Origin: a virus
Reading direction: 5' to 3' (one strand)
Length of the DNA: 64,000 nucleotides
IMG/VR virus record: IMGVR_UViG_3300042396_000723
Location: 1 to 64,000 of that record
Within the stretch, counting starts at the first letter, position 1. Every line of letters begins with the position of its first letter. Positions 1-58,057 of the stretch are shown piece by piece. Both the position numbers and the translations under genes were made by a program. The notes beneath the pieces were generated by a model, which saw nothing but the letters and a program-made list of their open reading frames with translations, did no database searches and was not told the origin of the DNA.

Positions 1-675
1 AAAAAAGCGACTCCTGCCAAAACCAAAAAAGCAAAACCCTCAACAAAGCTTAGTGAAGTTAGCAAAGAGCAGAAGAAAGTGGAGGCGATCGCAAAACCAT
101 CCAAAACAATAGGAGATGGAACTCATGACGGTGCACCTAAAAATGCTCAGGAATATTACGATATGGTGACAAAAAGCGGAGGTAAAATCACAAAAGAGGA
201 AGCAGAGGGAACAGCAAGAGCAATTGAAAAATGGGGGTTTGATTCCAATTACGTTAGGGATGTACAAAAAGCGGGTAAATCCAGTCAAGATGAGCAGTAT
301 ATAACCGATTACATCAACAATTCAACTCCGTACAAAGGAGAGGTTTATAGAGGGCTTTTGATCTGGATGGAAAACCCAATGGATCTCATGAAAGTAGGAC
401 AGCCATTGGATAATCAAGGGGCTCACGCTTCTTGGACTTCTAAGTTACAGGTAGCAGAGTATTTTGCTGATGTACCCGACGAGCTTCACTACTCTGTTGT
501 GATTAAGTCAATAAATAATAAAACAGGTGCGTCCATTCGTAACATTGCCGAAGAGTGGCAGGGGGGTTTCACGAAAATGGAGGAGGTCATAGTCCCTAAA
601 AATGCCAAGCATATTGTCAGAAGTATTAAGGAGACAAGAAAAGATGTCTTCTTTGTAGAGGTAGAAGAGGTTTGA
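1..675 (+). CDS. ADP-ribosyltransferase-like domain protein (possible MuF/minor-head associated), 5' end outside window
   Basis: Frame is open from nt 1 with no stop, so the GTG at 79 is not the true start. Translation has YRG, SWTS and MEEVIVP motifs resembling the R / S-T-S / E-x-E triad of ART toxins. Confidence 0.4.
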   Translation, partial: KKATPAKTKKAKPSTKLSEVSKEQKKVEAIAKPSKTIGDGTHDGAPKNAQEYYDMVTKSGGKITKEEAEGTARAIEKWGFDSNYVRDVQKAGKSSQDEQYITDYINNSTPYKGEVYRGLLIWMENPMDLMKVGQPLDNQGAHASWTSKLQVAEYFADVPDELHYSVVIKSINNKTGASIRNIAEEWQGGFTKMEEVIVPKNAKHIVRSIKETRKDVFFVEVEEV

Positions 676-691
676 TTCCTTCCAAAATAAA

Positions 692-716
692 ACCCCAAGA
701 ATACCTGGGGTTTTAT
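692..716 (+). terminator. intrinsic terminator
   Basis: ACCCCA/TGGGGT stem, 8-nt loop, then TTTTATT directly after the stop at 675 (coordinates approx.). Confidence 0.6.
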
Positions 717-886
717 TGTTACAATTCAAATTAAACCGATGTGTACTATTCAATGGGAATGGAAATAATGTACCGCAACCCTGCCTATTTAGTCAGAAAA
801 GACCCTGAAATGTTCGACTTTATTTATGCTGTTGTAAGACAACGTTAAACCGTTTGTTGATATAATTAAGAAAACTAGGGTTAACT

Positions 887-1483
887 ATGGATTTTAATAT
901 TTTTGAGTTAGACGGCAACAGATACCCACTAGAAAAGCCTATTGATTTCCTTCTGAATTGGGCAATGGAGGCATCGGCAGACGAGTTCAAGAGCAAGGAA
1001 TCATTAGATAAAATATCAAAGGTTGTTAAGGCTGTTTGTCCTGCTATTCCTAACGACTACTTCTTTACGGTTGACCCGCAGTGTACGATCCCTTTGATTG
1101 ACAGCTATCAAATAATTGACTTTGTAGCTAAATTAATGGTTTGTGTTATTGAGCGACGGATTAAGGTTATTGAGTCAATCCCAGAAGAAGACAGGGTATC
1201 TTTAAAAGTTGATATTGATCAAAAGGTGGCATTATTCCGTCAAGTTGTTGACCGCATCAGCAAGCAATTCTCTGACTTGAAGTTTAGCCTAATTTTGGGA
1301 GGGATTCAGATAACCAATAACGACAAACCACCATCCCCTGTGTCACAAGAAGATCCGAAACTTGTGGCATTGAATCGGCAGATGTGGACAGGGGTGTCCC
1401 CACAGACAGATTCAAAAATCATGGAACTGAAACGACAGATGGAGGATCTAAGTTCTGAGATTGCTCTACTAGAAAAGGTTTAA
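887..1483 (+). CDS. hypothetical protein, C-terminal coiled coil
   Basis: 198-aa ORF with ATG start; no recognisable motif. Confidence 0.55.
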   Translation: MDFNIFELDGNRYPLEKPIDFLLNWAMEASADEFKSKESLDKISKVVKAVCPAIPNDYFFTVDPQCTIPLIDSYQIIDFVAKLMVCVIERRIKVIESIPEEDRVSLKVDIDQKVALFRQVVDRISKQFSDLKFSLILGGIQITNNDKPPSPVSQEDPKLVALNRQMWTGVSPQTDSKIMELKRQMEDLSSEIALLEKV

Positions 1484-1484
1484 T

Positions 1485-1682
1485 TCAGTCCCCGTATCGA
1501 TCCTGGTACTCCTCAATCCCCATTTCTAGGAGCATCAAGAAAAAATAAGTCATCTCCAAAGAGTCAGAAGCGTCGTGCTTGCTGGCTTTTTCTTTTTGGG
1601 CGATCGCTTCTACCTTCTTATATAGGGGCATGGGAACACGGATGGACATTTTACGTTTTTCGATTCCGTCTGAAACTGGCAT
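1485..1682 (-). CDS. ribbon-helix-helix (CopG/Arc-like) DNA-binding protein
   Basis: 65 aa; N-terminal MSIRVPMPLYKKVEAIAQKE resembles an RHH beta-strand plus helix. Confidence 0.45.
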   Translation of the reverse strand: MPVSDGIEKRKMSIRVPMPLYKKVEAIAQKEKASKHDASDSLEMTYFFLMLLEMGIEEYQDRYGD

Positions 1683-1831
1683 TTTATAGGACTCCTAGCG
1701 AATTAAAAAATATTTTAGCATACCCCTTGACATTTGTAGGACAACCGGCTATTATTGGAAATGTGGATGGGAAAACACCCGAAACGACACCCGCCACAAA
1801 AACCAAAAACGCCACAGAGTAAGTAAACCCC

Positions 1832-2062
1832 ATGAACGCAACATTTAAAAGACTACTGGCTATTGACGACCTCAGAACCGCAAACATTGACCTCAACGAA
1901 TGGAAAGCCCTGGAAAGTGAATTAACCGATCCCGAATGCGTGGAGGTTGAAACAATCCCGAACTTCTATAAAACGCTGGCTAAATATACCGAGAAACGTC
2001 AGAAAGCTATGACAGCTTATCGCAAAGCGCATTTGGAATATTTAATCGAAATCGACTCATAG
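1832..2062 (+). CDS. hypothetical protein
   Basis: 76-aa ORF in the operon leading to the tape-measure gene. Confidence 0.4.
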   Translation: MNATFKRLLAIDDLRTANIDLNEWKALESELTDPECVEVETIPNFYKTLAKYTEKRQKAMTAYRKAHLEYLIEIDS

Positions 2063-2100
2063 CTTCCCAAACCGCAAACTCTACACTACAAAGGACAATT

Positions 2101-2766
2101 ATGCTTTTTACTCAACACATCAACGCATTAAATTCAGGTATCACCTCCATTCAATCCCGAATTGACGAACTAGAGGCTATTCTTAAAGGGTTACGCAACG
2201 ACAAAACCAATTTGGAAGCCGAACTTCAAACAGTCCTAACCTTAGAAGGTGCGGCGGAATCAGCTATCAATCAAGCTCAGTCTTTTGTTAACGCCGCCGA
2301 TTCTATGGGACGGACTGACCTGATCGCCACTTTCTGGCAGGCTATGGACGCTATGCAAAAAGGAGCGATCGCACAACTCCCAGAATCACCGGAACCCGAA
2401 CCTACCCCCGAACCCGAACCTACCCCCGAACCACAATCCCCAACCGATGACGTGATCACGGTAGAAGTGACACCGGAACCACAATCCCCAACCGATGACG
2501 TGATCACGGTAGAAGTGACACCGGAACCCGAACCCACCACCCCGACAACGCCAGATCCCATGACTGAAACTCAAAACGGTAAAGTCCCTCAGTCGGTAGG
2601 GAGTGCAGCTTTTAGCACAAAAGATGCTACCTTGGAAGAACTAAAAGAATATGTCCGAAACTTTCAATCGGACGATAAGACAAAAGTTCACGGGAAACTT
2701 AGTCAACGAAGTACCTGGGTGATCGCTGCCAAACAACTTATGAATATCTCAGACTACACGAAATAA
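2101..2766 (+). CDS. hypothetical protein with N-terminal coiled coil and PEPT-rich repetitive linker
   Basis: 221-aa ORF; internal PEPEPTPEPEPT and duplicated PEPQSPTDDVITVEVT segment. Confidence 0.55.
   Translation: MLFTQHINALNSGITSIQSRIDELEAILKGLRNDKTNLEAELQTVLTLEGAAESAINQAQSFVNAADSMGRTDLIATFWQAMDAMQKGAIAQLPESPEPEPTPEPEPTPEPQSPTDDVITVEVTPEPQSPTDDVITVEVTPEPEPTTPTTPDPMTETQNGKVPQSVGSAAFSTKDATLEELKEYVRNFQSDDKTKVHGKLSQRSTWVIAAKQLMNISDYTK
2428..2523 (+). repeat. perfect 48-bp tandem direct repeat (2 units) inside CDS 2101-2766
   Basis: gaaccacaatccccaaccgatgacgtgatcacggtagaagtgacaccg occurs twice head-to-tail. Confidence 0.9.
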
Positions 2767-2877
2767 GTAAAAATCCCAGACTGTACACCTGGGATTTAAT
2801 CAAAAAAGACAAGTAGATTCGCGAATCAATAAACCATAACCTCTTGATTTAATACTAACAAATCAAGGGGTTTTAGG

Positions 2878-5800
2878 ATGTCAAGTTCAAGTCTTAGCGG
2901 AGTCAGTATCACGATCTCGGCAAGTAATCAAGTTTCTCCTGTCCTTAGATCAATTCAAGAGGAGTTGCTTGGGCTGCGCCAACCCCTTCAGGTACTTGAC
3001 TTGTTTCGGAGTTCCTTTGGGGGGATAACGTCATCTATTGTTCAGGCTACGACAACTATCGGCTTCTTTGGGCAGGGGATGTCAACGCTTCGAGGGTTGG
3101 TTTCTAACGGCCCGTTTAAATTGTTGATTGGACAAACAGTCGAATTACATGGGCAGTTGCTATCGGTCGCTTCAACTATGGCGGCAACCTCAAAAATTAT
3201 TAGTAACGGGTTTGAAATTAAAGATCCTACACAAGCGATTCAGGCACTCAACCAACCTATAAACGAACAGATTAGACAGTTAAGAATTGATTCTATTGAT
3301 CTAGTTGGGGTCACGTCTAAGCAGTTGATTCCAGTATTTCAACAGGTGGCACAGGGTGCGACACCGATTGGAGCAACCCTAAGCGACGCAAGGAGTTTAA
3401 CCATTGACTTTGCAGCCGCACTGGGAACTTTACAAGTTCCATTGTTTCAAAGTAGGCAAGAAATTCAATCAATTTTTCTAGGAACAATTGATATGAATTC
3501 TATCCTGGCTAAATCGTTGGGGATAACTAACGTGATGGTTGCCAAGTGGAAGGCTCAGGGAACTTTGGTGCAGGAATTGACCACGCGATTGTCTGCATTT
3601 AGGGCCGGGAACAAATTGGCAGCCCAGAGTTTTTCTGGGGTAACTTCAAACATTCAAGAGATGTTTGAATTGATAGGACAAAGATCGGGGGAAAAACTAT
3701 TAACACCTTTGACTCAATCCCTAAACGAAGTCTACAAGTTTTTACAAACGAACCTTGATATGTTGGTGGGTGAATCGGGGAAGGTTACAGATCAGATCCT
3801 TCGCGCGGGTCTAGCCTTCCAGTCTATTTTTAAAACGGTTCTTGGGGATGTGGTGACGGTCTTTAAGGATGTTCCATTATTCTTGTTTACCTCTCTAGCG
3901 AACGCATTGGAGGCACTGAATCAAGGTCTGGGATTCACGATGGCGGTATTGCGTCCTGCCATTAACCTGTTCGCGGCATTATCAAGTGCGGTAGCTCCCC
4001 TCGCTTCTGGTTTCCTTGTGATTGCCCTTCAGGTAAAAGCCCTCACTGTTGGAGTAGGAATACTTTCTAAGGCTTTTGGGGTATTAGGCGGCATTCTGTT
4101 ACCCGGTGTCGGGCAAATCTTCCCCCTCCTTGTTGCTAACGCAGGTGCTTTAGGCGCTGCTTTTACGGGGCTTGGGGGAGCAACTATCTTCAGTTCTGTA
4201 GGTATGGCTCAATTCTCTGCCAACCTTCAGCGAATACCCGGCGCAATGACGTTAATGGCTTCTGCTACGGCAGCGTTAGGGAATCTTCTCAGGACAGTTG
4301 GCTTGGCGGTTGTCGCATTTGGTGCGTTCAAAATAATTGATGAATTTATCCTCAAAAACAGGGGGTTAATGGAAGTCCTTGGGGGTGTATTTGGGGGGTT
4401 GGGTGAAGTTGTCAATATTTTAATCGGGTCTTGGCAGTCAGCCTTGATCACTTCGACTGTTGTTGTCGGGGGGTTAGCGATCGCATTCCGCGCTCAATTA
4501 ATCCCTGCGGTTTTGTCGTTTATCTCAATTCAATTAGCTGGTGTTGTAACCAGTTCTGCATCTGCATTTGTGTTTCTTGCCGGAGTATTGACTTCTCTTG
4601 GATTTAGTAGTATGGCTATCACGGCCGGAACTGCTGCACTTCATTTACAAATGCTGTCTGCGTCTGCAAGTCTGGGAACATTGACTATGGGAGGGTTGGC
4701 TCTTGCTATTAAAAGTGTAGCCTTATCTGTAGCTACGTTACTCGCTCCTTTGGCTGCTGTAACTGCGGTAGTGGGAGGTGTTGGACTTGTTCTTTATAGT
4801 CAATCCTTAAAGGATTCTACAGAAGCCACACAGGAGTTAGCTAATAGAACTGAAGAATATGGGGATTTAGCTATTGATTCGCTTGAGAAACTGTCTGTGG
4901 CTCAGAAAAAGCAACAGGAGTCAGAGAAATCAGGGATTAGATTGACCGACGAAGAATATAAAAACAATCAAAAACTTCAAAATCAAGCCAAACTCAGGAT
5001 CGGATTAATAGAGGATCAAATAACTGCATTAAAAGAGCAGGAAAAAACAGTTAAGGGTGATGCCAACAAGTCTAACATTCAATCTCAAATAGGTGAGCTA
5101 GAAAAACTAAAAACGGCATTAGCTCAAGCATCTTCTAATGTGGTTATTGCACCAAAAGATTTAATGGTATTGGGGACGGCGTTAGAACAGTTAAAGAAAA
5201 AAGCAAATGAAGCTATGGACGCAATTCTAAAACCATCTGGAGATCAGGAGGTGTTTAAGAAAAAGGCATCCGAGGTTATTGAATTTAACATGGCTTTGTT
5301 AGAAATGGGGCAAACAATTGATAAGGATGTTATTACTAAACTACGTCAGTTAGCTAACGATACAAGGTTAGATCAAGAGGTTCAACGCAAGGCACAGGAA
5401 ACAATTACTAAAGTCATTGAGCAGGAAAGCAAAAAGCGATCCGATACTATTGCAAAACAAAAAGCAGAGGTAGAATCTCAACAAAAAAACGGGGAGATAG
5501 GAGTAAGGAAATCGGAAAAGTTAATAACTGATTTAACTATCAAGGAATTAGAGGAACGGAAATCAGCCCAACAAGAAATCCAGTCCGAGCAACGAGCTTT
5601 TGGAAACATTGAAGCAGCCCGAAAAGCAGGGGAAGAAATCAAGAAAATAGAATCAGATATTACTAAAGCAATTGCAGAGGAACGGTCTAAACGAAACGAG
5701 GAACTGGTTAAAAACTTTCAGGAGCAACAGTCAATTATTGAGGGGTATCTCGCCCAAGGATTAACCACAGAGAAAAACTACAACAACCAAAAATCACAGT

Positions 5801-7926
5801 TACAAATCGAGGGATTGGACGAACAAATTAGGCAGCAGCGAAACAAATTAGGAAAATTAGCAGGGGATGATAAAGAAGGTCGGGAGGCTATTAACGCCGA
5901 GATAGGGAAACTCCAAGTTCAACGGCAAAAAACAATTAAGGACGGTTATGATCAAGAGCTTTCTACCCTTGAAAAACAACTCCAGAAAACCGTTGATTTA
6001 GTCAAAGAGGCTGAATTAATTAGACAAAGTGAAGTTCAGAAGTCGTTTAATGAATTTGGAGGTAATCAGAATTTAATTAACGAGGAAAATGTAAAAAACA
6101 ACCTTAAGACCCTTGAGGCTGAATACAGTAACACGGTTAAAAAATTAAAGGAAACAAAATCTCAACCAGCACTATCAGATCCCCGACTAGAGACTGACAG
6201 ACAAACTAAAATCAGAAAGTTAAGACAAGAACAACTCCAACAATCTTTGGGGATGTTGAAAGTCGAGAAAGAAGCCTGGGATGCTCATACTCAAACCGTT
6301 TTAGGGAATATTGCCAAAGAAAACAATGCCCAACTATTAAGCATAGAAAAGCAGATTAATAGCGGTAACGTACTGAGGGAATTAGAGGGGGCTGCAAGTG
6401 CTACCGATAAAGTTCAGGAGTTGCAAGTTCTACTTAGTCGAGAAAAAGACATTAATAAGCAAGCCGAGTTAAGGTTGTCCCTAGAGAAAGCTATCAGGGA
6501 AGAACGGGAAGCCTGGGGAGCGTTGGGGATTGCCGAAATTGAAGCAATTAACAATCTTGAGTTAATCGCCTTAAAAAATCTGCTAAACCAAGGGAAAATT
6601 CTCAAGGAAGAATACGATCTGAAAATAGCACAGCAAGCCATAGAAACATTACAAAAACGAATTAGTTTAGAGACGGATGTTGGCAAGAAAATCAAGCTCC
6701 AATTACAGCTAGTTGAAGAACAAGGGCGGTTGATTGATGCAAACGTAAGGAGATACGAAGCAGGGTTAAACAAGGAAGCACAAGCCTACGAGAACACCAT
6801 TAAACGCCAGAATAATGAACTAGACAATCAGAGTCGGAAATTCGATATTCTCAATAAAGCCCTTCAGATGCGTTCGGAATTACAGGACGCACAGAAGGGG
6901 GTGTTTGACGCGGCTAGTAGCTTTTACTCAGGGGAATTAGATGCTTTAGTCCAAGGGGAACGCTCCGAACGGAAGAAAAAACAACTTGCAGAATTAATCT
7001 CGGCTATTAAATTAAAATCAGCAATACAGCAAGCTGAATTTGAGAAACAAAGTCTGATATCCCAACAATTAATGAAAACCATCGAGCTTGAACGGGAGAA
7101 AATAGCTGCTAGAAGGGCGCTGAATGATGCGAAAATTGAAAAAAGAAAAGCTGATAATGCTCTTAAAGTAGCAAAAAAAGATCCTAGAACAACTCCAGAA
7201 CAGTTAGAGGAGCTGCAAACAGCGGCAGATATAGCAGGGGAGAACGTTGGCTACCAAGAGCAAAATTTGGGTTTATTACGAAAACAAGAATTTAACCAGT
7301 CAAAGGTTTTTAAACTCCAGAGAGAAGCGTTAGAATTCCGCAGTCAAGGGGCTATTCGTTCGGCACAGGTAGACTTAGCGAACAACACCAGTAACAGATC
7401 ATTGAGACGACAGCGTTTTGCTGATATTACATCCAGTGTGCTTGATAGTTTTGGAGTAGACAGTATAAATGATCTAACGGGTCGAGCCGCGGCGACGGGA
7501 GAACAAGCCCTCAGAGAAAGTGGATTAAGGGGGGGTAGAAGACTTCCAGGGGGATTATCAGCAGAAGAACAGATGCGAAGCCTTAGAGGGGATTCTGGGG
7601 ATTTTTCTGGTGCAACAGGTAGCGCACCTTCTGAAATCTACAAACTAACTGGCGGACTCGGTGGGGGGTCGGCATCATCTCCTCAATTAACAGATCCTCT
7701 CAAACTTCCCTCTGCTTTGTCTCCTGTCCTATCCCCCATCGTCTCCCCAGACTTCTCACGGGCATTGCAGCAAGCTACAGGGAAAGGTCAAACGACAATT
7801 TCTCCAACAATAAATATCCCGATTACCGTAAACGGCGATCAAAAAGTGGGAGAATCAATTAAGAAACAGGTTGAACCAAGGTTAGAAAATGTTATTCAAC
7901 GAATGGTTAATCTCTCCCGTAATTAG
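2878..7926 (+). CDS. tail tape-measure-like protein
   Basis: 1682 aa; N-terminal third is Gly/Ala-rich with multiple hydrophobic segments, remainder is long K/E/Q-rich coiled coil; size and composition typical of a TMP. Confidence 0.6.
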   Translation: MSSSSLSGVSITISASNQVSPVLRSIQEELLGLRQPLQVLDLFRSSFGGITSSIVQATTTIGFFGQGMSTLRGLVSNGPFKLLIGQTVELHGQLLSVASTMAATSKIISNGFEIKDPTQAIQALNQPINEQIRQLRIDSIDLVGVTSKQLIPVFQQVAQGATPIGATLSDARSLTIDFAAALGTLQVPLFQSRQEIQSIFLGTIDMNSILAKSLGITNVMVAKWKAQGTLVQELTTRLSAFRAGNKLAAQSFSGVTSNIQEMFELIGQRSGEKLLTPLTQSLNEVYKFLQTNLDMLVGESGKVTDQILRAGLAFQSIFKTVLGDVVTVFKDVPLFLFTSLANALEALNQGLGFTMAVLRPAINLFAALSSAVAPLASGFLVIALQVKALTVGVGILSKAFGVLGGILLPGVGQIFPLLVANAGALGAAFTGLGGATIFSSVGMAQFSANLQRIPGAMTLMASATAALGNLLRTVGLAVVAFGAFKIIDEFILKNRGLMEVLGGVFGGLGEVVNILIGSWQSALITSTVVVGGLAIAFRAQLIPAVLSFISIQLAGVVTSSASAFVFLAGVLTSLGFSSMAITAGTAALHLQMLSASASLGTLTMGGLALAIKSVALSVATLLAPLAAVTAVVGGVGLVLYSQSLKDSTEATQELANRTEEYGDLAIDSLEKLSVAQKKQQESEKSGIRLTDEEYKNNQKLQNQAKLRIGLIEDQITALKEQEKTVKGDANKSNIQSQIGELEKLKTALAQASSNVVIAPKDLMVLGTALEQLKKKANEAMDAILKPSGDQEVFKKKASEVIEFNMALLEMGQTIDKDVITKLRQLANDTRLDQEVQRKAQETITKVIEQESKKRSDTIAKQKAEVESQQKNGEIGVRKSEKLITDLTIKELEERKSAQQEIQSEQRAFGNIEAARKAGEEIKKIESDITKAIAEERSKRNEELVKNFQEQQSIIEGYLAQGLTTEKNYNNQKSQLQIEGLDEQIRQQRNKLGKLAGDDKEGREAINAEIGKLQVQRQKTIKDGYDQELSTLEKQLQKTVDLVKEAELIRQSEVQKSFNEFGGNQNLINEENVKNNLKTLEAEYSNTVKKLKETKSQPALSDPRLETDRQTKIRKLRQEQLQQSLGMLKVEKEAWDAHTQTVLGNIAKENNAQLLSIEKQINSGNVLRELEGAASATDKVQELQVLLSREKDINKQAELRLSLEKAIREEREAWGALGIAEIEAINNLELIALKNLLNQGKILKEEYDLKIAQQAIETLQKRISLETDVGKKIKLQLQLVEEQGRLIDANVRRYEAGLNKEAQAYENTIKRQNNELDNQSRKFDILNKALQMRSELQDAQKGVFDAASSFYSGELDALVQGERSERKKKQLAELISAIKLKSAIQQAEFEKQSLISQQLMKTIELEREKIAARRALNDAKIEKRKADNALKVAKKDPRTTPEQLEELQTAADIAGENVGYQEQNLGLLRKQEFNQSKVFKLQREALEFRSQGAIRSAQVDLANNTSNRSLRRQRFADITSSVLDSFGVDSINDLTGRAAATGEQALRESGLRGGRRLPGGLSAEEQMRSLRGDSGDFSGATGSAPSEIYKLTGGLGGGSASSPQLTDPLKLPSALSPVLSPIVSPDFSRALQQATGKGQTTISPTINIPITVNGDQKVGESIKKQVEPRLENVIQRMVNLSRN

Positions 7927-7968
7927 TAGAGCCAATGCACAGGCTTGAATAGGTAGTGTTGAATGGTT

Positions 7969-15880: not shown

Positions 15881-16373
15881 ACTACCAGAAGGAATGAAAG
15901 AGACACCTTCTAGGGTTGTTAAATACTGGGTAGAGATGTCTCAAGGTATAGGCGTTGATCCTTCCGAGTCTTTGAGTAAAGTTTTTGATTGTGGATATGA
16001 CCAGGTAGTGATTGAAAAGGGTATTCCTTTCACTTCATTATGTGAACATCACCTATTACCCTTTTACGGTGTTGCTCATATTGGCTATATTCCTAATCAA
16101 AAAGTTGTAGGGTTATCAAAACTCCCAAGGGTTTTAGAGGTGTTGGCAACACAACCCCAAATTCAAGAAAGATTAACTGAACAGATGGGCGATTTGATTT
16201 TTGATAAGTTGAGTTGTAAAGGTGTTGTAGTAATTTTAGAAGCGGAACATAATTGTATGAGTTGTAGGGGAGTTAAAAAGCATGGGGTGAAAACTATCAC
16301 CAGTTGTTTAAGAGGTGTTTTTATGACTGATTCCGCAGCCAGGGCAGAAGTTTTAAACCTGATTAAAGGATGA
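15798..16373 (+). CDS. folE: GTP cyclohydrolase I FolE
   Basis: CEHHLLPF, GLSKLPR, QPQIQERLT and EAEHNCM motifs; start uncertain (in-frame alternatives 15750 or 15861); overlaps the queD 3' end in another frame. Confidence 0.75.
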   Translation: MKLAQVNASTLNSVISLVESAMVTLWGELPEGMKETPSRVVKYWVEMSQGIGVDPSESLSKVFDCGYDQVVIEKGIPFTSLCEHHLLPFYGVAHIGYIPNQKVVGLSKLPRVLEVLATQPQIQERLTEQMGDLIFDKLSCKGVVVILEAEHNCMSCRGVKKHGVKTITSCLRGVFMTDSAARAEVLNLIKG

Positions 16374-16557
16374 CATGAGAATACATTTGATTATTCCTAT
16401 TAAGGGGGGATGCAAGTTGACTTTGCATCAAATGTTTTATTAGAACAGGAGTACACCAATAATTTATTCTCTTTTGCTTATCAAGAGTACGAAAAATATC
16501 AGCATCAGTATTGGAATGGATTAATTAATCGCGTCAACAGTACAAGGAATGAAAACA

Positions 16558-17268
16558 ATGGCTGATAAATGTTTGGTAATTTTAAGCGGCGGTCAAGATA
16601 GTACGACTTGCTTGGCGATCGCAAAAAGTAAATTCAAAGAAGTTCACGCAGTAACTTTTAATTATGGTCAACGGCATTTAACCGAAATTGAGAGCGCGAT
16701 CAAAATAGCTGAAAAGTTAAACTTAGCTTCCCATGAAATTATCGATCTAGGTCAGGGGATTTTAAAAGGTAGCTCCCCACTGGTCAGCAACAACGAATTG
16801 GGAGTTTATAAGAATGTTGATGAATTACCTGGCGGGGTAGAACCAACTTTTGTTTATAGCAGGAATATTTTATTTTTAACTATTGCATCTAATCGCGCCG
16901 CCGTTATGGGTATTAATGATATCTTTATCGGTGTCTGTGAAGCTGATTATGCGGGTTATTTTGATTGCAGACTAGATTTTATCAATGTCATGTCGAAAGC
17001 GTTAGGAGAGGGTGTTTATGGTTCGCCCGATGCTTTTAAAATTCATACTCCGTTAATGAGCTTAACTAAAGCCGAATCGGTATTATTAGCTAAGGATTTA
17101 TTGGGTGATGATTTTGATTCAGTGATGGAATTAACCCATACTTGTTATGCGGGTGTTAAGGGCGGATGTGGTAAATGTCACGCTTGTTTGATTCGTGACA
17201 GAGGTTTTCAAGAGGCGGGAATAGTTGACCCAATATGGAAGTTTAGAAATGTATCTGTATTTAGTTGA
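16558..17268 (+). CDS. queC: 7-cyano-7-deazaguanine (preQ0) synthase QueC
   Basis: PP-loop SGGQDS and C-terminal zinc motif CYAGVKGGCGKCHAC; internal ATG preferred over track start 16549. Confidence 0.85.
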   Translation: MADKCLVILSGGQDSTTCLAIAKSKFKEVHAVTFNYGQRHLTEIESAIKIAEKLNLASHEIIDLGQGILKGSSPLVSNNELGVYKNVDELPGGVEPTFVYSRNILFLTIASNRAAVMGINDIFIGVCEADYAGYFDCRLDFINVMSKALGEGVYGSPDAFKIHTPLMSLTKAESVLLAKDLLGDDFDSVMELTHTCYAGVKGGCGKCHACLIRDRGFQEAGIVDPIWKFRNVSVFS

Positions 17269-46171: not shown

Positions 46172-46696
46172 TTAATAGCGGTTTTCCTCCTCAGTCCAAC
46201 TTTGTTCAACTAAGCAATCAACAGCTAACTGAAACGAACTATGGCGGGACGTACTATACTGAAAACCTTTCCCATGCACCAGCATCTCACCGACCGCATA
46301 AAACCAGGATTTGTACTGGACTACGAAACCCAACTTACAACCCGTCTCATAAATAACCGTCCCCTGTTGTTTGGCTAAGGAAACAATCATTTCTTGAGTT
46401 GGTTGATTCGCGTCGATTAATTCCCGTTTTTGGGAACAGATTAGCTCCCAATAGAATGAGAACTGATCCGCACCAATTAGAATTGCGCCACCATCAGCTA
46501 ACACAAATTTCAAGATGTCGTGATTGGTAAAGATACCTGTTATCTGTTCGGGCGTGGGATTGATTTGTCCGAATGTGTCCCAAGCAATGACTTGGGCAGC
46601 GATGGTCTTGTCTAGTGCTAACGCCATGATTTCCCCTGAAATCAGAGGGGCGGGCGCTGTCTGAACTTGACTTGTTTGGACGGTTGTTGCTATCAT
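46172..46696 (-). CDS. hypothetical protein
   Basis: 174-aa ORF. Confidence 0.5.
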   Translation of the reverse strand: MIATTVQTSQVQTAPAPLISGEIMALALDKTIAAQVIAWDTFGQINPTPEQITGIFTNHDILKFVLADGGAILIGADQFSFYWELICSQKRELIDANQPTQEMIVSLAKQQGTVIYETGCKLGFVVQYKSWFYAVGEMLVHGKGFQYSTSRHSSFQLAVDCLVEQSWTEEENRY

Positions 46697-46915
46697 GGTT
46701 TAGTTGGGTTTTGACCCGTAAGGCGGTTGGCACTGATGTTGTAGTCGGGTGCTGACCGCTTTTGGCTTTGTATCTACAATCTTATAGTAATCTGATTACT
46801 ATGTCAAGGGGTTTCGGAAAAATTCTTGTTACTACACAAAAAGAAGTTTAGGTATTGGCGGCAAGGCTTGTACAGAAAGGCATTTAGCTTATGCGGTTGC
46901 AATCGACAATCACTC

Positions 46916-47248
46916 TCATCGCTTCTGACTAAAGGACTTGATTGTCACGGTAGGGAACAGGTCTCGGATATCAGCACCGAGGGTCTTTAAAACAAAATCC
47001 AATCTTTCACGACTAACAGATGCAACTTTTCCCTGTTCCCATTTGAGGATTGTGTCAAAGGAAACCGTTGGCTCCGTAAGGGTTGCAAGTTTTTTTTGCG
47101 ATATGTTTTTGGCATTTCTTACATCTTGCAATCTAGTCCCAACGTCCTTATCCCAAGCAATTTGGACAATACAGTTATATGGAATCATAATCTCCTCTTC
47201 TTGATCTTTCGGTATAGTATTGACATTACTACCTTTTTGTTCTAACAT
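46916..47248 (-). CDS. HTH (XRE/Cro-CI-type) transcriptional regulator
   Basis: VGTRLQDVRNAKNISQKKLATLT...ILKWEQGK is a classic XRE HTH; start uncertain (track 47401, in-frame ATGs at 47248 and 47188). Confidence 0.5.
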   Translation of the reverse strand: MLEQKGSNVNTIPKDQEEEIMIPYNCIVQIAWDKDVGTRLQDVRNAKNISQKKLATLTEPTVSFDTILKWEQGKVASVSRERLDFVLKTLGADIRDLFPTVTIKSFSQKR

Positions 47249-47465
47249 AGCAATATTGTAGGAATCTGGCAAGACCAAATCACCAGATTCCTGCACCCCC
47301 TGAAACAACAAGCCTTGGATCGGCTTTGTAAATCGTAAGGGGAAAAACCCGAAAAGGAAAATGCCTATGGGATGAAACTGAACGGGCAGATTGTAGAACA
47401 CCTAAATACCAGAGGGAAGATTCAAGCATTCCCTTTGGTTTCCTAAATAATGAAATGAAAAAAAT

Positions 47466-47490
47466 AGCGATAGCGATTGCGATTGCGATT
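47466..47490. repeat. tandem hexamer repeat (GCGATW)x4
   Basis: agcgat agcgat tgcgat tgcgat t between the HTH regulator and the replication module. Confidence 0.8.
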
Positions 47491-47630
47491 TTTGCAGTCA
47501 TAAATTGTTTATTAATTTTCTGTGATGATTCGCAGAAAATCGGGGAAAATTCCCCGTCGGAAGAGCAACCCAAACGGGGAGATGGTCGAAGAAGCTGATC
47601 ATCATTTTCCCTAAAAATTTTGAGGAAAAT

Positions 47631-47909
47631 ATGAAGATTTCAATTTCAGAAGAATTGGATGACATTGGAATGTCCGCCGAAGCATTCCGAGTCTATTTTG
47701 CGATCGTTTGCCATATTGCAAATCACGAGACGTTTCCAACGGTTGATCAAATCACGTCAAAATGTTTTTCCAGACGACGCGCGTCTGGAAAAACGCAGAC
47801 AAGGCTTGCGTTGCGCGAGCTAATTAAGCTCGGTTTAATTAGCGGTGATATCGAAACGGAAAACTATACCTTAGTTCATCCCAGTAAGTGGGAAGTGGGG
47901 GCTGTATGA
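47631..47909 (+). CDS. winged-helix DNA-binding protein (possible replication-module organizer N-domain)
   Basis: 92 aa; helix-rich with a basic wing, first gene of the operon containing dnaB. Confidence 0.4.
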   Translation: MKISISEELDDIGMSAEAFRVYFAIVCHIANHETFPTVDQITSKCFSRRRASGKTQTRLALRELIKLGLISGDIETENYTLVHPSKWEVGAV

Positions 47910-49081
47910 AACCATCTATTCTAGCCGCCTTTGCAGAAGCCGTCCCCTATATCCCCGGACTCAGACAGCAAACAGGGAGCGTAGTAGCCACGATTCTTAT
48001 GATGCAACTTGAGTATCGTTTCGCAAAGTATCCAGACGGGTTTTATAAGTTTTTAGAACCCCCTCAAAACGGACATCAGGACTACAGGCTTGGGGATAGT
48101 TGGGTTGAGGAACTCGCTTTTTCTAAAGAAGAATTTAGGACTGGGTTTGACAAGATTGGAGTCCGTTACAACTCCAAAACCCAGTATGACGAAGCAAAAT
48201 CTAGCGGATCGGAATTTGGTTGTAATTACTACTGTTCTTACGTTGACCGGAGGTCGGGGTTAACTTTCTACTTTCGGAATCACAGCAAGGTAGATGAGCT
48301 AATTTCCGATATCGAACCCAGGCAAAAATCAGTGGGTTTTCGCCCACGGAAAACTAGACCCCAAATGGTAGATCCCAATCTACAGGAAATCGGGAATCCC
48401 AATTTACTGAATATGGTAAATCCCAATTTACCATCATCGGGAATCCCAATTTACCAGAGTGGTGAATCCCAATTTCCTATTCCTTATATAGATATTTCAG
48501 AAAAGACTTCAGAAAAGACTCCAGAAAATACCCCCCTTACCCCCCAAGGGGAATCGGAGGAGGGGGGGATTCAGAACGAAGCCGTTTTGATTTCAAACGA
48601 AGACCAGGGGAAAGAGCTTACCGAGGACTCTGCTACACAGCAAAGTCAAAAAGAGAATCACCGACCTGAACAAAATCTTAATCCGGTGATCAGACATTCC
48701 GCCGCCGTCGAGTCCGATCCTCGATTTCTACCAACGGACGCAACAGCAGACAATATGAAAACTTGGAACGCAATTGTGGCGACCGGAGCCATGAGAGGTG
48801 AGCGATCGCCCGACCCTGAGTTTTTGGAATATTACAGGGGGCTATTAAGCAAATGCACTCATTACAGGGGCAAAGACTGTAATTCAAACCATGCCAAATC
48901 TTCCCTTGCTCAGAAATGGAAATCCGAGCCACTAAAAATCCTTGCCGATGCCGAGTCGTGGTTGAAATCAAAAGCCAAGTTTAGCGGTGGCAAATCAACC
49001 CAGACCCGCAATATCAGCGAACTTTCTAGGGATGAACGCCTCGCCATCCTGAGAGCCAAACGCGAACAAAAAGGAGCCTAA
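47888..49081 (+). CDS. hypothetical protein (replication module)
   Basis: 397-aa ORF; repeated NPNL-like tetrapeptides. Confidence 0.5.
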   Translation: MGSGGCMKPSILAAFAEAVPYIPGLRQQTGSVVATILMMQLEYRFAKYPDGFYKFLEPPQNGHQDYRLGDSWVEELAFSKEEFRTGFDKIGVRYNSKTQYDEAKSSGSEFGCNYYCSYVDRRSGLTFYFRNHSKVDELISDIEPRQKSVGFRPRKTRPQMVDPNLQEIGNPNLLNMVNPNLPSSGIPIYQSGESQFPIPYIDISEKTSEKTPENTPLTPQGESEEGGIQNEAVLISNEDQGKELTEDSATQQSQKENHRPEQNLNPVIRHSAAVESDPRFLPTDATADNMKTWNAIVATGAMRGERSPDPEFLEYYRGLLSKCTHYRGKDCNSNHAKSSLAQKWKSEPLKILADAESWLKSKAKFSGGKSTQTRNISELSRDERLAILRAKREQKGA

Positions 49082-49083
49082 CC

Positions 49084-49671
49084 ATGACCGAGCTTAACGA
49101 TGAAATCTTTGATCAGGGAATTGAAAACCTGAAAGAAAATTTTTCCGACGCGATTTTCACCGAACTCAAATATGAAATTTGGTTCGACAAACTCTCTCAG
49201 GAGTTATCAGCTGAAGAATTTGAGACTGCAATCCGTGAGGCAATTTTCAACCTTAGCAAGTGTCCCACGGGAAAAGAGCTTGTAAGCCTCGTTAAAGAAT
49301 CCGAACGTGAGTTAGTAAGTAACTGTTGGTCAAGATGCCTAGAATCGCTTGCTAAACGCCTCCCGTTGAATAATTTAGACGATGCGAGTCAATATGCAAT
49401 CGTTCAACTCGGAGGGATGTCTCACCTTGGGTCGATTGAAAGTACCCAACTCAACTACCTGAGCAACGATTTCAAGACTCATTGGCAAGCCTACCGAAAA
49501 GCCCCGCGAGAATTTGAGCGTCCCACGCAGGTCATCCCCCGTGAGCAAATCGAGTTCAAGCCCAATGGACTCAAGCCACAGATTTCAGAGGAACAGAAGT
49601 TAAAAAATCAGGAATTTCTAAATAACCTGATCGCCACAAAAATGAATAAAAACTTAAATGGAGCGAAATAA
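49084..49671 (+). CDS. hypothetical protein (replication module, possible helicase loader)
   Basis: 195-aa ORF immediately 5' of dnaB; stop overlaps the dnaB start. Confidence 0.45.
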   Translation: MTELNDEIFDQGIENLKENFSDAIFTELKYEIWFDKLSQELSAEEFETAIREAIFNLSKCPTGKELVSLVKESERELVSNCWSRCLESLAKRLPLNNLDDASQYAIVQLGGMSHLGSIESTQLNYLSNDFKTHWQAYRKAPREFERPTQVIPREQIEFKPNGLKPQISEEQKLKNQEFLNNLIATKMNKNLNGAK

Positions 49672-50987
49672 TGGAAACAATAATCATGCAAAACGTTGAG
49701 GCAGAACAAGCCGTTTTGGGAGCGATTCTCTTAGACCCCGAAGCTATGGGGCGAGTTGCGGAAACGCTAACTGCTAAATCTTTTTCCCTGCGATCGCATC
49801 AAACAATCTACAAAGCAGCTTTAGCATTACATTCCGAGGGAATAACCACGGATTTAATGACCGTCACTACCTGGTTATCCGATCAGAAATTACTTGAAAA
49901 AGCCGGGGGACAATTAGGATTAACCCAATTATTAGACCGCACAGTTTCAGCAGTTAACATTGATCAATACGGGCTGTTAATTGCCGATAAGCAAACTCGA
50001 AGAAACCTAATTGAATCTGCCCATAAAATTATTGAATTGGCAGAAGATACCAGTCAACCTTTAGAGACAATTCTCCAAAAGTCAGAGGAACAAATTGCTA
50101 ATATTTCCCAATCAAAATCACAACAGGATTTAGTTTCGATTGGTGAAACTTTAATTGATACCTTTCAAGAAATTGAAGACCGGAGCGAAAGCAAGATTCC
50201 CCCCGGTGTCCCCTCTGGATTTTATGACCTCGATGCTATGACTGGAGGATTCCAACACACCGACTTAATTATTGTGGCAGGAAGACCTGCAATGGGCAAA
50301 TCGAGTTTGGCTTTAAATTTTGGATATAACATTGCCAAAAAAGGGCTACCCGTCGCGGTCTTCAGTTTAGAAATGTCTAAAGGTCAATTAGTCCAAAGAC
50401 TATTATCGAGCGAAACCAAAATTGAAAGTACCCGCATTCGTTCAGGAAACATTCAGCAAGAGGAATGGGAACCTTTGACAACCGCAATTAGTTCCTTAGC
50501 AGAATTACCGATTTATATTGACGACACCTCGAATATTACCATCACCGAAATGCGTTCTGAAGCTCGAAGATTGCAAGCCGATAACGATGGAAAGTTAGGC
50601 TTAATTCTAATAGATTATCTGCAATTAATGGACGGAGGAAGTGATAATCGGGTGCAAGAATTGTCAAGAATTACACGGGGATTAAAGGGAATGGCAAAAG
50701 ATTTAAACGTTCCTGTAGTTGTCCTGTCTCAGTTGAGTCGTAGCGTCGAACAGCGCACCAATAAACGCCCAATGCTTTCAGACTTGAGAGAATCGGGCTC
50801 AATTGAACAAGACGCGGACTTAGTAATGATGATCTATCGAGATGATTATTATAATCCCAACACTTCGGACGCGGGAATAGCTGAATTAATTTTAGCTAAA
50901 CATCGCAACGGCCCCACCGGAACAGTAAAGCTATTGTTCGATTCTCAATTTACCCAATTTAAAAATTTAGTACGGGGGATGAACTAA
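49671..50987 (+). CDS. dnaB: replicative DNA helicase DnaB
   Basis: N-terminal AEQAVLGAILLDPEA, Walker A AGRPAMGKSSLALN, Walker B LGLILIDYLQLM, RecA-like SQLSRSVEQR and arginine finger region. Confidence 0.9.
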   Translation: METIIMQNVEAEQAVLGAILLDPEAMGRVAETLTAKSFSLRSHQTIYKAALALHSEGITTDLMTVTTWLSDQKLLEKAGGQLGLTQLLDRTVSAVNIDQYGLLIADKQTRRNLIESAHKIIELAEDTSQPLETILQKSEEQIANISQSKSQQDLVSIGETLIDTFQEIEDRSESKIPPGVPSGFYDLDAMTGGFQHTDLIIVAGRPAMGKSSLALNFGYNIAKKGLPVAVFSLEMSKGQLVQRLLSSETKIESTRIRSGNIQQEEWEPLTTAISSLAELPIYIDDTSNITITEMRSEARRLQADNDGKLGLILIDYLQLMDGGSDNRVQELSRITRGLKGMAKDLNVPVVVLSQLSRSVEQRTNKRPMLSDLRESGSIEQDADLVMMIYRDDYYNPNTSDAGIAELILAKHRNGPTGTVKLLFDSQFTQFKNLVRGMN

Positions 50988-51416
50988 ATGGACATACTTG
51001 GTTGGGAAGACTTAGGAAGTATTATCAATTGGTTTTACGAACAGCAGAGACAAGGCAAAACTTCCTTTAAAGTTCAAGAAATGCGCGATAAGTTTAATTT
51101 GAATATTCCAAATTCAAACACCCGAATAAAACGGTTTCTTAAGTTTGGAATCATTAAACCACTAACTTATGGCAGATACGAAATCGAACCACTGTCAGAA
51201 GAAAGAATCCAGGAGATTAAAGACAAAATCATCCCCCCTAATCCCATTTTTAAAACCTATTATTTCAGGGGAAGACAACATACCGTCGAATGGATTTACC
51301 AAAACCAAAACCCCCCGATGACCCTCCAATATTTTGCTCAAAGACTTCAACGGGGTTGGTCACTAAAGAAAGCATTAGAAACACCGACCCGAAAATACAA
51401 AAAAGAGGTTAATTAA
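50988..51416 (+). CDS. hypothetical protein
   Basis: 142-aa ORF. Confidence 0.5.
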   Translation: MDILGWEDLGSIINWFYEQQRQGKTSFKVQEMRDKFNLNIPNSNTRIKRFLKFGIIKPLTYGRYEIEPLSEERIQEIKDKIIPPNPIFKTYYFRGRQHTVEWIYQNQNPPMTLQYFAQRLQRGWSLKKALETPTRKYKKEVN

Positions 51417-51420
51417 CGCC

Positions 51421-51984
51421 ATGACCGCAGCAACCAAGAAGATAATTGAAAGAATCTTAAAAATTGGTGAGTGGGTAGAGATTGACCCACATAAACACCG
51501 CCCATCTTATCTAATAAGAGGTACAGCATGGCGAGTTGAAAGTTTCAATGTATTAAAACAAACCTGTCAAGTAACTAACGAAAAAACCAGATCGGAAACC
51601 CTAGACTTTGAGGAGGTTTCCGACTCATCCCCATTCAAAAAAACAGATATTGTGCAATTAAAAAAGGATAGCCGTTACATCGGACGGGTGATTATGTGCC
51701 GGGGGAATAAAATCAAAATTCAGTGGGCGAAAGGATTGGCAGAATCCTTAGACTCGGACAAGATAAAACTATTTATTCAGATGGTCAAAGGGGAACAAAT
51801 CCCCCTCGGAAATTACGCTTTCCAGAAAGGCGATCATGTCAAAACTACAGACAAGAATTTTGGCAATGTAATCCTCACTGTAAAAGAATGCTTACCCTCT
51901 GGAATGGTGGTGTTGAGTTCATCAAACGATCCTAATTTATTGCTCCCCGGCTGTGGCTTAACAATTGTTGAGGAGGGTTTCTAA
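51421..51984 (+). CDS. hypothetical protein
   Basis: 187-aa ORF. Confidence 0.5.
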   Translation: MTAATKKIIERILKIGEWVEIDPHKHRPSYLIRGTAWRVESFNVLKQTCQVTNEKTRSETLDFEEVSDSSPFKKTDIVQLKKDSRYIGRVIMCRGNKIKIQWAKGLAESLDSDKIKLFIQMVKGEQIPLGNYAFQKGDHVKTTDKNFGNVILTVKECLPSGMVVLSSSNDPNLLLPGCGLTIVEEGF

Positions 51985-53015
51985 TGCCAACATTCGCAAC
52001 ATTATTCATGGGCGGAGGCGGTGCAGATTTGGGGTTAGAGGCCGCAGGGTTTAAGTCTTTATGGGGAATTGAAAGAGATCCTAAAATTGCAGAAGTAGCA
52101 CGATTAAATTTCCCAAATACCAAAGTATTTAATTCTTGCGCAGGAGACATAAACCCCCGCAGTCTTCCCTATGTTGACCTGCTTTGGATGAGTCCCCCGT
52201 GCCAACAGTATTCAAACGCTAGACGGGGTAATTTAGGCGATCACAAAGACAAGGACGCGGGGCTGTACTGTAGCAGTTATATCGCAGCGATTGATCCTCG
52301 ATGGGTAGTTTTAGAAAACGTCCCTGGCTACTCAAAATCACCTGTATTCGAGAAAATCCTACAATCCTTAATTCGCCACGGATATCGCTATCATTGGTTA
52401 ATACTTGACGCGGCGGATCACGGGGTTCCCCAAAACCGGAAACGGTTGATTATGTGGGCAGTTAAAAATGATCAACCTCTCCCCTATTTCCCCGAATCAA
52501 AACCCAAAAAGGGATGGTATCAAGCCATTGCTGACTTAATCCCAGAAATGCAGGACTGTGAGCTTGCAGACTGGCAGATTAAGCGACTAAATGAATTGGG
52601 TTATTTACCAGAAAAAGCCTGGATTGATATTGGGAAACAACTCATTAGACAGGCTACAGTTCGGGAGTCAAACGATCCAAGTTTTACTATTGTGAGTGGT
52701 CATGTTAACTCGCATTCTCCTATCCTGTTAATCCCCCGAGCGGGAGCTTGCATCAAGAATATTCTCCCGACTCCACAGAACAAACCCTGCCCAACAATTC
52801 GAGCTATGAAGGATGTTTCAACCCATTGGGCGGACATCGTGCAGGGAAGCCAAATTAAACGAATTAGTCAGAAAGCGACGGCACGGCTCCAGACTTTCCC
52901 CGACTCCTATCAATTCCCAGAATCCAAAACTTTAAGCCAACAAATAATAGGAAACGCCGTGCCTCCGTTATTGGCTAAAGAATTAGGTCTGGCAATCTTA
53001 AAATCAATTAACTAA
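51984..53015 (+). CDS. DNA (cytosine-5)-methyltransferase
   Basis: Motif I LFMGGGG, motif IV SPPCQQYS (PCQ), motif VI VLENVPG. Confidence 0.85.
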   Translation: MPTFATLFMGGGGADLGLEAAGFKSLWGIERDPKIAEVARLNFPNTKVFNSCAGDINPRSLPYVDLLWMSPPCQQYSNARRGNLGDHKDKDAGLYCSSYIAAIDPRWVVLENVPGYSKSPVFEKILQSLIRHGYRYHWLILDAADHGVPQNRKRLIMWAVKNDQPLPYFPESKPKKGWYQAIADLIPEMQDCELADWQIKRLNELGYLPEKAWIDIGKQLIRQATVRESNDPSFTIVSGHVNSHSPILLIPRAGACIKNILPTPQNKPCPTIRAMKDVSTHWADIVQGSQIKRISQKATARLQTFPDSYQFPESKTLSQQIIGNAVPPLLAKELGLAILKSIN

Positions 53016-53017
53016 CC

Positions 53018-53461
53018 ATGAAAACATCAACTAAAGCCAAAACCAAACCCGCTAAAAAAGGATTTCAACCCGCCCCTAAAATTCATGACAATGACTTACA
53101 TATATTTTCTTGTGAGTGCCTTTGGTATGACTCAGAAACCGACGAGGAACTATTGACCGAATTGTGGACAGTCAAACTCGATAAACGACGGTTTCGGACT
53201 GATGTCAGGCAAGCCATTATTACGGGGTTGATCTATTGCTTTCTTGAAACACCGGAAGCAACGGAACGGCATATTAACAGGGTGTTTTTTTGGAATAATA
53301 AATCCCGTGCCTATGAGCCATTAGGGGCGGTGTCTGACGCGCCGATGGACGGATCTAGTCCGGTTGATTTTGAAGCCGATCCGGTGGTGGCTTATGAGCG
53401 ATTAAAAGCCCTTTGTGTCGAGATCGAAGTTATCAAGGTTGACGATTGCTTTTGCTCTTGA
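53018..53461 (+). CDS. hypothetical protein
   Basis: 147-aa ORF. Confidence 0.5.
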   Translation: MKTSTKAKTKPAKKGFQPAPKIHDNDLHIFSCECLWYDSETDEELLTELWTVKLDKRRFRTDVRQAIITGLIYCFLETPEATERHINRVFFWNNKSRAYEPLGAVSDAPMDGSSPVDFEADPVVAYERLKALCVEIEVIKVDDCFCS

Positions 53462-53469
53462 CCTTTTAA

Positions 53470-53515
53470 AAATACACAAATAAACTTGTTTTTTTTGCGT
53501 TATTTGTGTATAATG
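53470..53515 (+). promoter_or_regulatory. promoter-like element with overlapping inverted repeat (extended -10 TGTGTATAAT)
   Basis: ACACAAATAA...TTATTTGTGT inverted repeat and a TATAAT box about 16 nt after TTGTTT. Confidence 0.4.
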
Positions 53516-53519
53516 AAAA

Positions 53520-53780
53520 CAGTCAAGAATCAAGGTTTACCAATGTAGTTTGTTGGTAAATAGTTAACCAGTCTAAGCTCTTTACTGAGCTACGTTATTG
53601 GGAAGTGTTTAAGTTCATACCTTGGGATGCGTTGCCAGTTCCAAGCTCTATAACTAAGTGATTAAACAGATGTACAGCAATTAAGTCAGCAATACTGCTG
53701 ATACCCTCTTAATAAGCAGCGATTTCCCACAAATCCCCATAATCTGTTATAACTGGTGAGTAGTTATATGAGGTTGTTTT
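53520..53780 (+). ncRNA. candidate structured noncoding RNA or long 5' leader
   Basis: About 260 nt without an ORF downstream of the promoter-like element; hairpins TTTACCAA/TTGGTAAA and CAGCA/TGCTG. Confidence 0.25.
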
Positions 53781-53781
53781 T

Positions 53782-53982
53782 ATGGTAAGACCCCACGAAC
53801 ACAGGCAAGAAATCAAAGCCAGACTCAAACCAGAAGATAGGGAGAAGTTGAAAGCCCTCGTCGTTGGCATGGGTTATCGTTATTGGAGGCAGGAGTCACC
53901 GGAACCCGCATGGACTGAGTTTTTGGAGGCGATCGCAACGGGCGATATAATTCTTTACAAAAAAGTCGGGGGAGGGGGTTGA
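53782..53982 (+). CDS. hypothetical small protein
   Basis: 66-aa ORF. Confidence 0.35.
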   Translation: MVRPHEHRQEIKARLKPEDREKLKALVVGMGYRYWRQESPEPAWTEFLEAIATGDIILYKKVGGGG

Positions 53983-54043
53983 CCTTTTGGGATAAGTGGG
54001 GTACAGTTATAAATGTAGAAGGTTGAAATAAAGGAACAAGACG

Positions 54044-54274: not shown

Positions 54275-54342
54275 AGATTAATTAACCGAGTAAGGTGGCT
54301 GCCCTACTCGGTTCGAAGTCAATCATTTAAGAGGAGTATACC

Positions 54343-58056: not shown

Positions 58057-58057
58057 T

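Follow-up and report, generated by a model that had tools for sequence, protein, structure and literature searches.

An ADP-ribosyltransferase domain behind a Cys4 module in the structural gene block of a PaV-LD-like cyanophage

The gene that opens the 64,000-nucleotide stretch of viral DNA analysed here (the window) almost certainly encodes a protein with the ADP-ribosyltransferase (ART) fold. From the N- to the C-terminus, the full product consists of a short Cys4 module, a Lys/Pro-rich linker that is predicted to be disordered, and an R-S-E-clade mono-ADP-ribosyltransferase domain. The virus particle probably carries the enzyme, which would act to modify the host. The window holds the 3' part of this gene: its 5' end is cut by the window edge, and frame 1 of the plus strand has no stop between base 1 and the TGA at 673-675. 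The features of the gene are as follows.

1-675, plus strand: 3' part of the gene, codons 134-357 and the TGA stop, from the open reading frame and the full 357-aa product (P0002)
1-108, plus strand: Lys/Pro/Ala-rich linker between the Cys4 module and the enzyme domain, predicted to be disordered from pLDDT and alignment
109-672, plus strand: R-S-E-clade ADP-ribosyltransferase domain, fragment residues 37-224, from profile, AF2 model, Foldseek and dN/dS
346-354, plus strand: Y116-R117-G118, the aromatic-Arg NAD-binding motif on strand beta-1, from conservation and register with the Vis toxin
430-441, plus strand: S144-W145-T146-S147, the equivalent of the S-T-S motif, from conservation and register with the Vis toxin
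577-597, plus strand: M193-E194-E195-V-I-V-P199, the end of the ARTT loop and strand beta-5, from conservation and register with the Vis toxin

The fragment makes up the final 224 codons of the gene, whose full 357 aa are encoded at positions 6146-7219 of a metagenome contig (L004) that is 98.2% identical to window 1-7937 and in which position 6545 is window base 1. The same protein is called as an intact ORF on five independent contigs, and P0001-P0003 are 100% identical to the window fragment across 224/224 residues. Over the adjoining tape-measure region, the Planktothrix phage PaV-LD shares ~95% DNA identity with the window, and the far window end aligns with the left end of that phage's record. 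As the window thus spans the ends of this linear record, the genome is either circularly permuted or has had its ends placed differently, and on these matches the window is the genome of a PaV-LD-like Planktothrix cyanophage, permuted relative to the PaV-LD record. Window 46661-60282 additionally resembles positions 764-22761 of that record (helicase, integrase, methylase and others) at ~87% identity, in pieces that cover 31% of the 25-kb query. Similarity between the window and L004 ends at window 9664 (L004 15879), so that the window phage and L004 differ there by an insertion or a replacement; L004 carries an OrfB_IS605 / Cas12f-like TnpB gene at 16127-17219, downstream of the tape-measure region.

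Single-sequence searches of the fragment were uninformative. Neither the fragment nor P0002 matched a Pfam family above the gathering threshold (the best match of the fragment being DUF5926 with an E-value of 0.11), the fragment had no match in NCBIfam, and a phmmer search with it against the PDB returned noise alone (E ~1). Profile and structure-based methods were therefore needed. When compared with the PDB, a profile of the family matched the Vis toxin (4xzj) with an E-value of 8.6e-10 and Tre1 with 0.0028, and XopAI was also matched. The AF2 model of the fragment has a mean pLDDT of 82.8, with 141/224 residues at 90 or above and most 10-residue blocks of the domain at 85 or above; the linker alone is disordered, with a pLDDT below 50 at residues 1-33, where the alignment is also indel-rich and poorly conserved. 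The top 50 matches of this model in a Foldseek search of the PDB were all ARTs (E 5.6e-10 to 2e-05) and included Vis, Tre1, ExoS/T, C3, XopAI, Plx2A, VIP2, ART2.2, HopU1, C2-I and VahC. Both the model and the Foldseek matches indicate the ART fold, which is defined by an alpha-helical N-lobe and an NAD+-binding split beta-sandwich.

Against predicted viral structures, the PaV-LD paralogues rank first, and the further matches are 'minor capsid protein', 'portal' and 'head morphogenesis' fusions, phage 'ADP-ribosyltransferases', T4-Alt-like RNA-polymerase ARTs and mycobacteriophage VIP2 proteins. Relatives of the window protein also pass Pfam cut-offs: P0015 matches PF03496 (ADPrib_exo_Tox) with 30.8 bits against a cut-off of 23.4, PaV-LD ORF079R matches PF01129 (ART) with 24.2 bits against a cut-off of 22.3, and several homologues carry precomputed PF03496 or PF01129 labels. 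The first-pass annotation had proposed an ART domain and had named the lack of an ART fold by profile or structure prediction as the result that would refute it; both methods show the fold, and the domain resembles those of Vis, Tre1, C3, ExoS and T4 Alt/VIP2.

The segments from which that proposal was made, VYRG, SWTS and EEVIVP in ART order, are indeed present and conserved at residues 115-118 (V115-Y116-R117-G118, nt 343-354), 144-147 and 194-199 (E194-E195-V-I-V-P199, nt 580-597). In the profile alignment, YRG, S144-W-T146 and E195-V lie in register with YRG, S-T-S and E-A-E-V of the Vis toxin, and the order of an aromatic-Arg motif on beta-1, an S-T-S-type motif on beta-2 and a catalytic Glu on beta-5 is that of the R-S-E clade. 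S144, S147, E195 and V196 are invariant in both homologue alignments (n=12 and n=25), and R117 is invariant among the 12 homologues of the first (A1) and conserved in at least 90% of the 25 in the second (A2). A wider survey of 52 domain copies, drawn from family homologues, PSS2 gp030 and the PaV-LD paralogues, found Arg, Ser and the catalytic Glu retained without exception. The dN/dS of the domain relative to PaV-LD ORF062R is 0.175, and the ART domain is under purifying selection. We rejected the reading of these segments as chance motifs on the profile E-values and the invariant alignment columns, and that of the gene as a pseudogene on the dN/dS value and the intact ORF on the five contigs.

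The agreement with the R/STS/ExE pattern claimed in the first-pass annotation holds for the Arg, the S-T-S equivalent and the catalytic Glu, but not for the ExE element, which is degenerate. E195, the conserved catalytic Glu, aligns to the second Glu of the E-A-E of the Vis toxin, and two residues before it stands Met193, giving an M-E-E motif unlike E-x-E. The -2 position is thus occupied neither by the Glu of arginine-specific ExE enzymes nor by the Gln of C3-type QxE enzymes. Across the 52 copies surveyed, this position is E in 40, Q in 1, M in 6, T in 2, A in 2 and L in 1, with PaV-LD ORF062R among those with Met. The -2 Glu sets arginine specificity in R-S-E enzymes (PMC3102197), and the presence of Met193 therefore suggests either that the acceptor is probably other than arginine or that NAD+ glycohydrolase activity predominates. 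Judged by this residue, the window enzyme is unlikely to be a classical arginine-specific transferase; it could use a different acceptor, act predominantly as an NADase, or have lost transferase activity.

The second of these possibilities would make the protein an NAD+ glycohydrolase and not a transferase, one in which the acceptor-positioning Glu has been lost while NAD+ binding and the catalytic Glu have been kept. Such an enzyme would mainly hydrolyse NAD+ or NAD-derived signals, for example blunting host NAD-dependent defence or reprogramming metabolism. The dependence of arginine specificity on the -2 Glu is consistent with this reading, as are the Met found here and in ORF062R, the T, A or L found in three other lineages, and the retention of R, S and E under purifying selection. 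However, the ExE in 40/52 copies, together with the single QxE, indicates that the ancestral activity was transfer, and loss of the -2 Glu is also compatible with a new acceptor; we consider the glycohydrolase reading unlikely.

The complete gene allowed the part of the protein that lies beyond the window edge to be described. The N-terminus of the full protein is a ~75-aa segment with an invariant Cys4 motif, PKCKNGVSYSCGKSCISLKKNCKS, followed by the Lys/Pro/Ala-rich linker. This segment is the C-terminal half of a larger N-terminal module, so that the window protein has the short form (~75 aa) alone. In the short form or the long form (~150 aa), the module was found by hmmsearch at the head of PaV-LD ORF061R, 065R, 078R, 079R, 080R, 081R and 085R, and at least seven neighbouring PaV-LD genes carry it. 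The AF2 model of the long module (mean pLDDT 69.7) comprises a helix and a four-stranded sheet, a disordered stretch, the Cys4 knuckle and a further helix. Its fold matches are PaV-LD paralogues and Nodularia phage proteins that join the module to DUF3626 or ParB/Srx domains, and a search of the PDB with the module profile found no relative. An exhaustive HMMER search placed the module in 217 clusters (50% identity, E <=1e-3) of proteins between 45 and 1975 aa, usually at the N-terminus and sometimes repeated. When 69 representatives were scanned for partner domains, InPase was found in 8, ADPrib_exo_Tox in 5, GNAT in 3 and ART in 3, with protein kinase (2), PARP (2), ParB_N (1) and serine esterase (1) as rarer partners, a repertoire that is the one described for MuF-linked and polyvalent injected effectors (PMC5512222, PMC9503650).

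A second type of cargo behind the Cys4 module is a ~250-aa HExxH domain (VVVHEMSHW / AIVHELAHW), which occurs in PaV-LD ORF080R and 081R (L003 22631-24876) and in three adjacent genes at L004 2085-6072. This domain has no match in Pfam or, in a sequence search with ORF081R, in the PDB, and has weak PHROG matches to 'minor head protein' families. The module also occurs by itself, in recurrent ORFs of 152-174 aa on metagenome contigs (P0050, P0052, P0054 and P0055). These end in tails that look out of frame, such as ...DRLKRKNTGNIQEGL, and one of them recurs on 5 contigs, the longest reaching 30 kb. Frameshifts in cargo genes or errors of assembly could account for these ORFs, as could genuine truncation.

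PaV-LD itself contains five copies of the ART domain, all direct paralogues or orthologues of the window copy, one each in ORF062R, ORF066R and ORF085R and two in tandem in ORF079R, with identities to the window fragment of 87% (ORF062R), 54% (ORF066R and ORF085R) and 40% and 39% (ORF079R). The N-terminus of the window gene, on the other hand, matches the ORF085R type. At the nucleotide level the ORF085R-like 5' part is 75% identical and the ORF062R-like 3' part 88.5% identical to its counterpart, and the window ART gene thus reads as a mosaic of an ORF085R-type N-terminus and an ORF062R-type ART domain. In PaV-LD the ART-only ORFs 062R and 066R lack an N-module (L003 5492-8489 and 9711-12604). 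Immediately upstream of them stand two large ORFs that bear the module, 061R before 062R, with an overlap of 11 nt, and 065R before 066R, and homology to the ART family continues upstream of the annotated start of ORF066R; the 061R/062R and 065R/066R pairs may be split or frameshifted single genes.

The gene order over window 1-1817 differs from that of PaV-LD (L001 8001-11915). In the window the ART gene is upstream of the ORF084R homologue, whereas in PaV-LD ORF085R is downstream of ORF084R; ORF081R-083R and ORF085R are absent from the window, and the homologues of ORF084R and ORF086L abut at 1470-1483. Two features were found in the interval between the ART gene and the ORF084R homologue.

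686-717, plus strand: 12-bp hairpin with a U run at the end of its 3' arm, terminator-like, from folding
750-848, plus strand: relic, 32 codons long, of the 3' end of an ORF080R/081R-type HExxH cargo gene, from nucleotide identity and its translation, SMGMEIMYRNPAYLVRKDPEMFDFIYAVVRQR with a stop

The relic is 94% identical in nucleotide sequence to the 3' end of PaV-LD ORF080R. It looks like a recombination scar, which would be consistent with the shuffling of cassettes among module-bearing paralogues. The hairpin starts 11 nt past the ART stop codon, within an otherwise co-directional structural block, and has a folding energy of -15.8 kcal/mol (z -3.3), with 1/200 shuffled sequences folding as well. 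It was left unflagged by a simple scan for the terminator consensus and, from its predicted fold, looks like an intrinsic terminator. The neighbouring ORFs at 887-1483, 1485-1682 (minus strand), 1832-2062 and 2101-2766 have no PHROG or Pfam match, and no target, immunity gene or ADP-ribosyl hydrolase partner was recognised near the ART gene. Within ORF 2101-2766, positions 2392-2528 (plus strand) consist of perfect tandem repeats (18-bp in 2.3 copies and 48-bp in 2.1 copies) that encode a PEPEPT / PEPQSPTDDVITVEVT repeat in a 221-aa protein upstream of the tape-measure gene.

The position of the gene bears on the route by which its product would reach the host. The ART gene lies inside the head-to-tail structural block, between the head/cargo genes and the tape-measure gene. 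It had been described as the start of the virion gene block, an impression that arose because the window was cut there; the PaV-LD block starts with the portal gene, over 20 kb further upstream, and the ART gene stands just before the tape-measure cluster. In the PaV-LD GenBank entry ORF085R, which has the same N-terminus, is labelled 'minor virion protein' and ORF081R, which has the same Cys4 module, 'virion structural protein'. Further evidence comes from the related Aphanizomenon phage CL131, for which LC-MS/MS of purified virions identified gp048 by 105 unique peptides and gp045 by 33 (PMC6293099 Table S5). Gp048 (L009 3706-9141, 1811 aa) is encoded just upstream of the tape-measure gene and has at least four Cys-module-like segments in its interior, interspersed with several domains of alpha/beta-hydrolase or lipase-like type, and gp045 also carries a Cys module by hmmsearch. 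What PaV-LD spreads over separate genes is fused into one protein in CL131 gp048. More generally, ~44% of phage ARTs are in contexts that suggest head packaging (PMC9503650).

We therefore favour, if only modestly, a mechanism in which the window protein is active, packaged and injected. It would be made together with the head and tail proteins as the product of a late, virion-block gene, would enter the particle via the shared N-terminal module and would be released into the cell with the DNA, where host NAD+ would be used to ADP-ribosylate a host component early in infection. The enzymatic activity, acceptor, packaging and injection of the protein are what we infer from the data above.

A different fate is that the ART is active but never packaged, being expressed late and acting in the infected cytoplasm like T4 ModA/ModB, or on phage proteins, with the N-terminal module serving a role other than capsid targeting. 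That the window protein has the short form of the module alone would be compatible with this, and the terminator-like hairpin would make the gene the end of a separate transcription unit. The embedding of the gene in the head-to-tail structural block, the detection of module-bearing proteins in CL131 virions and the annotation of ORF085R as a virion protein all argue the other way, and we find an unpackaged enzyme about as improbable as a glycohydrolase.

The 'minor head protein' label that PHROGs and RefSeq give the ART family could instead be taken at face value, the window protein being an ART-fold paralogue without catalytic activity that acts as a decoy or as a structural or internal component of the head, while the canonical ExE copies (ORF079R and a 392-aa gene in L004) carry the activity. 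The degenerate ExE motif would be in keeping with this, and with five paralogous domains in PaV-LD subfunctionalisation is plausible. Dead ARTs, however, usually lose the NAD-contacting Arg, the Ser and the catalytic Glu. All three are strictly retained here, at a dN/dS of 0.18, and a dead paralogue seems to us more doubtful still than the two preceding readings.

That leaves the packaged and injected enzyme as the preferred reading, and the question of which class of virion-associated ART it belongs to. The first-pass annotation had likened the gene to the ARTs found on MuF-like minor head proteins and had asked whether the N-terminus, upstream of the window, is MuF-like. The nearest case is gp030 of the cyanophage PSS2, the sole other relative of the window ART domain from a phage record, which at 1499 aa combines MuF, a Zeta toxin and an ART. 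Its residues 873-1034 are homologous to the window domain (tblastn 9e-4; profile domain E 1.5e-24), and its motifs are canonical (YRG, ESWS and EWEV). The analogy holds to the extent that PSS2 gp030 has both MuF and ART; the window protein is without MuF. The upstream sequence recovered from L004 shows the Cys4 module and no PF04233, and this Pfam family (MuF) has no match in P0002 or in eight PaV-LD / L004 paralogues, although PSS2 gp030, as the positive control, matches it at 1.7e-08. We accordingly rejected a MuF N-terminus. That the protein might nevertheless belong to the MuF family of minor head proteins and carry an ART toxin at its C-terminus, as the PHROG family name and the joining of PF04233 to a homologous ART domain in PSS2 gp030 could suggest, is highly improbable given the absence of PF04233, the lack of MuF proteins among the fold matches of the module, and a gene position directly before the ORF084R homologue in place of the MuF-type position just after the portal gene.

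The best profile and fold matches remain bacterial. The Vis toxin of Vibrio splendidus (PDB 4XZJ) and Tre1, a T6SS effector of Serratia (PDB 6DRH), align with the window domain at ~21% identity over ~190 columns, with the YRG, S-x-S/T and E-V motifs in register. Both are arginine-specific ExE mono-ARTs delivered by bacterial secretion systems, whereas the window protein has Met at -2 and is encoded in a phage virion block, with a Cys4 module and linker where Vis and Tre1 have PAAR or secretion domains. T4 Alt and the Alt/VIP2 enzymes share the R-S-E clade with the window domain, whose fold matches include Alt-like and phage VIP2 proteins, and the late/virion gene context and proposed injection alongside DNA fit the published Alt/VIP2 model (PMC5512222, PMC9503650). 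Unlike T4 Alt, to which it has no detectable sequence similarity beyond the fold, the window protein comes from a phage that is not T4-like and whose host is a cyanobacterium; its carrier module is different, its ExE is non-canonical, and its packaging is a proposal.

With MuF-linked effectors and polyvalent proteins, the window protein shares the joining of a conserved virion-associated carrier to variable enzymatic cargo. In contrast to PSS2 gp030, there is no MuF, and PaV-LD-like phages split the cargo into many single-effector genes, each headed by Cys4. Classic polyvalent protein ARTs are of the H-Y-D (Tox-ART-HYD2) clade (PMC5512222), whereas the window domain has the R-S-E configuration. 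Polyvalent proteins moreover carry two or more effector domains on one virion-associated polypeptide, and the window protein has one enzymatic domain; relatives that do carry several are ORF079R (two ART), P0024 (ART and GNAT) and CL131 gp048 (several hydrolase domains). Head-block and MuF-fused R-S-E (Alt/VIP2) ARTs are already an established class, and the window protein belongs to the head-block phage ARTs. It departs from this class in having a Cys4 carrier where others have MuF, in the splitting of the cargo over several genes and in its non-canonical -2 residue. The papers searched give no account of ARTs in PaV-LD-like phages, and the Cys4 'carrier' module may be previously undescribed.

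A broader reading, which we put forward tentatively and hold to be possible though not the likeliest, is that the Cys4 'carrier' replaces MuF in PaV-LD-like phages and in siphoviruses of other filamentous cyanobacteria, and loads a split, recombining arsenal of single-domain effectors (ART, zincin-like HExxH, GNAT, kinase, pyrophosphatase, PARP and ParB) into the virion. Several ART paralogues in this arsenal, the window copy among them, are without the arginine-specifying Glu and may now use a new acceptor or hydrolyse NAD+.

Head-block phage ARTs are already thought to be injected enzymes of host takeover or anti-defence, and our observations extend this known theme and open no new one: the window protein is a credible but ordinary example of such a phage enzyme. 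They add a freshwater bloom-forming host, Planktothrix, and a concrete, testable gene. The five ART paralogues of PaV-LD, the altered acceptor-specifying residue in some of them and the shared non-MuF module may provide handles on the early stages of cyanobacterial infection.
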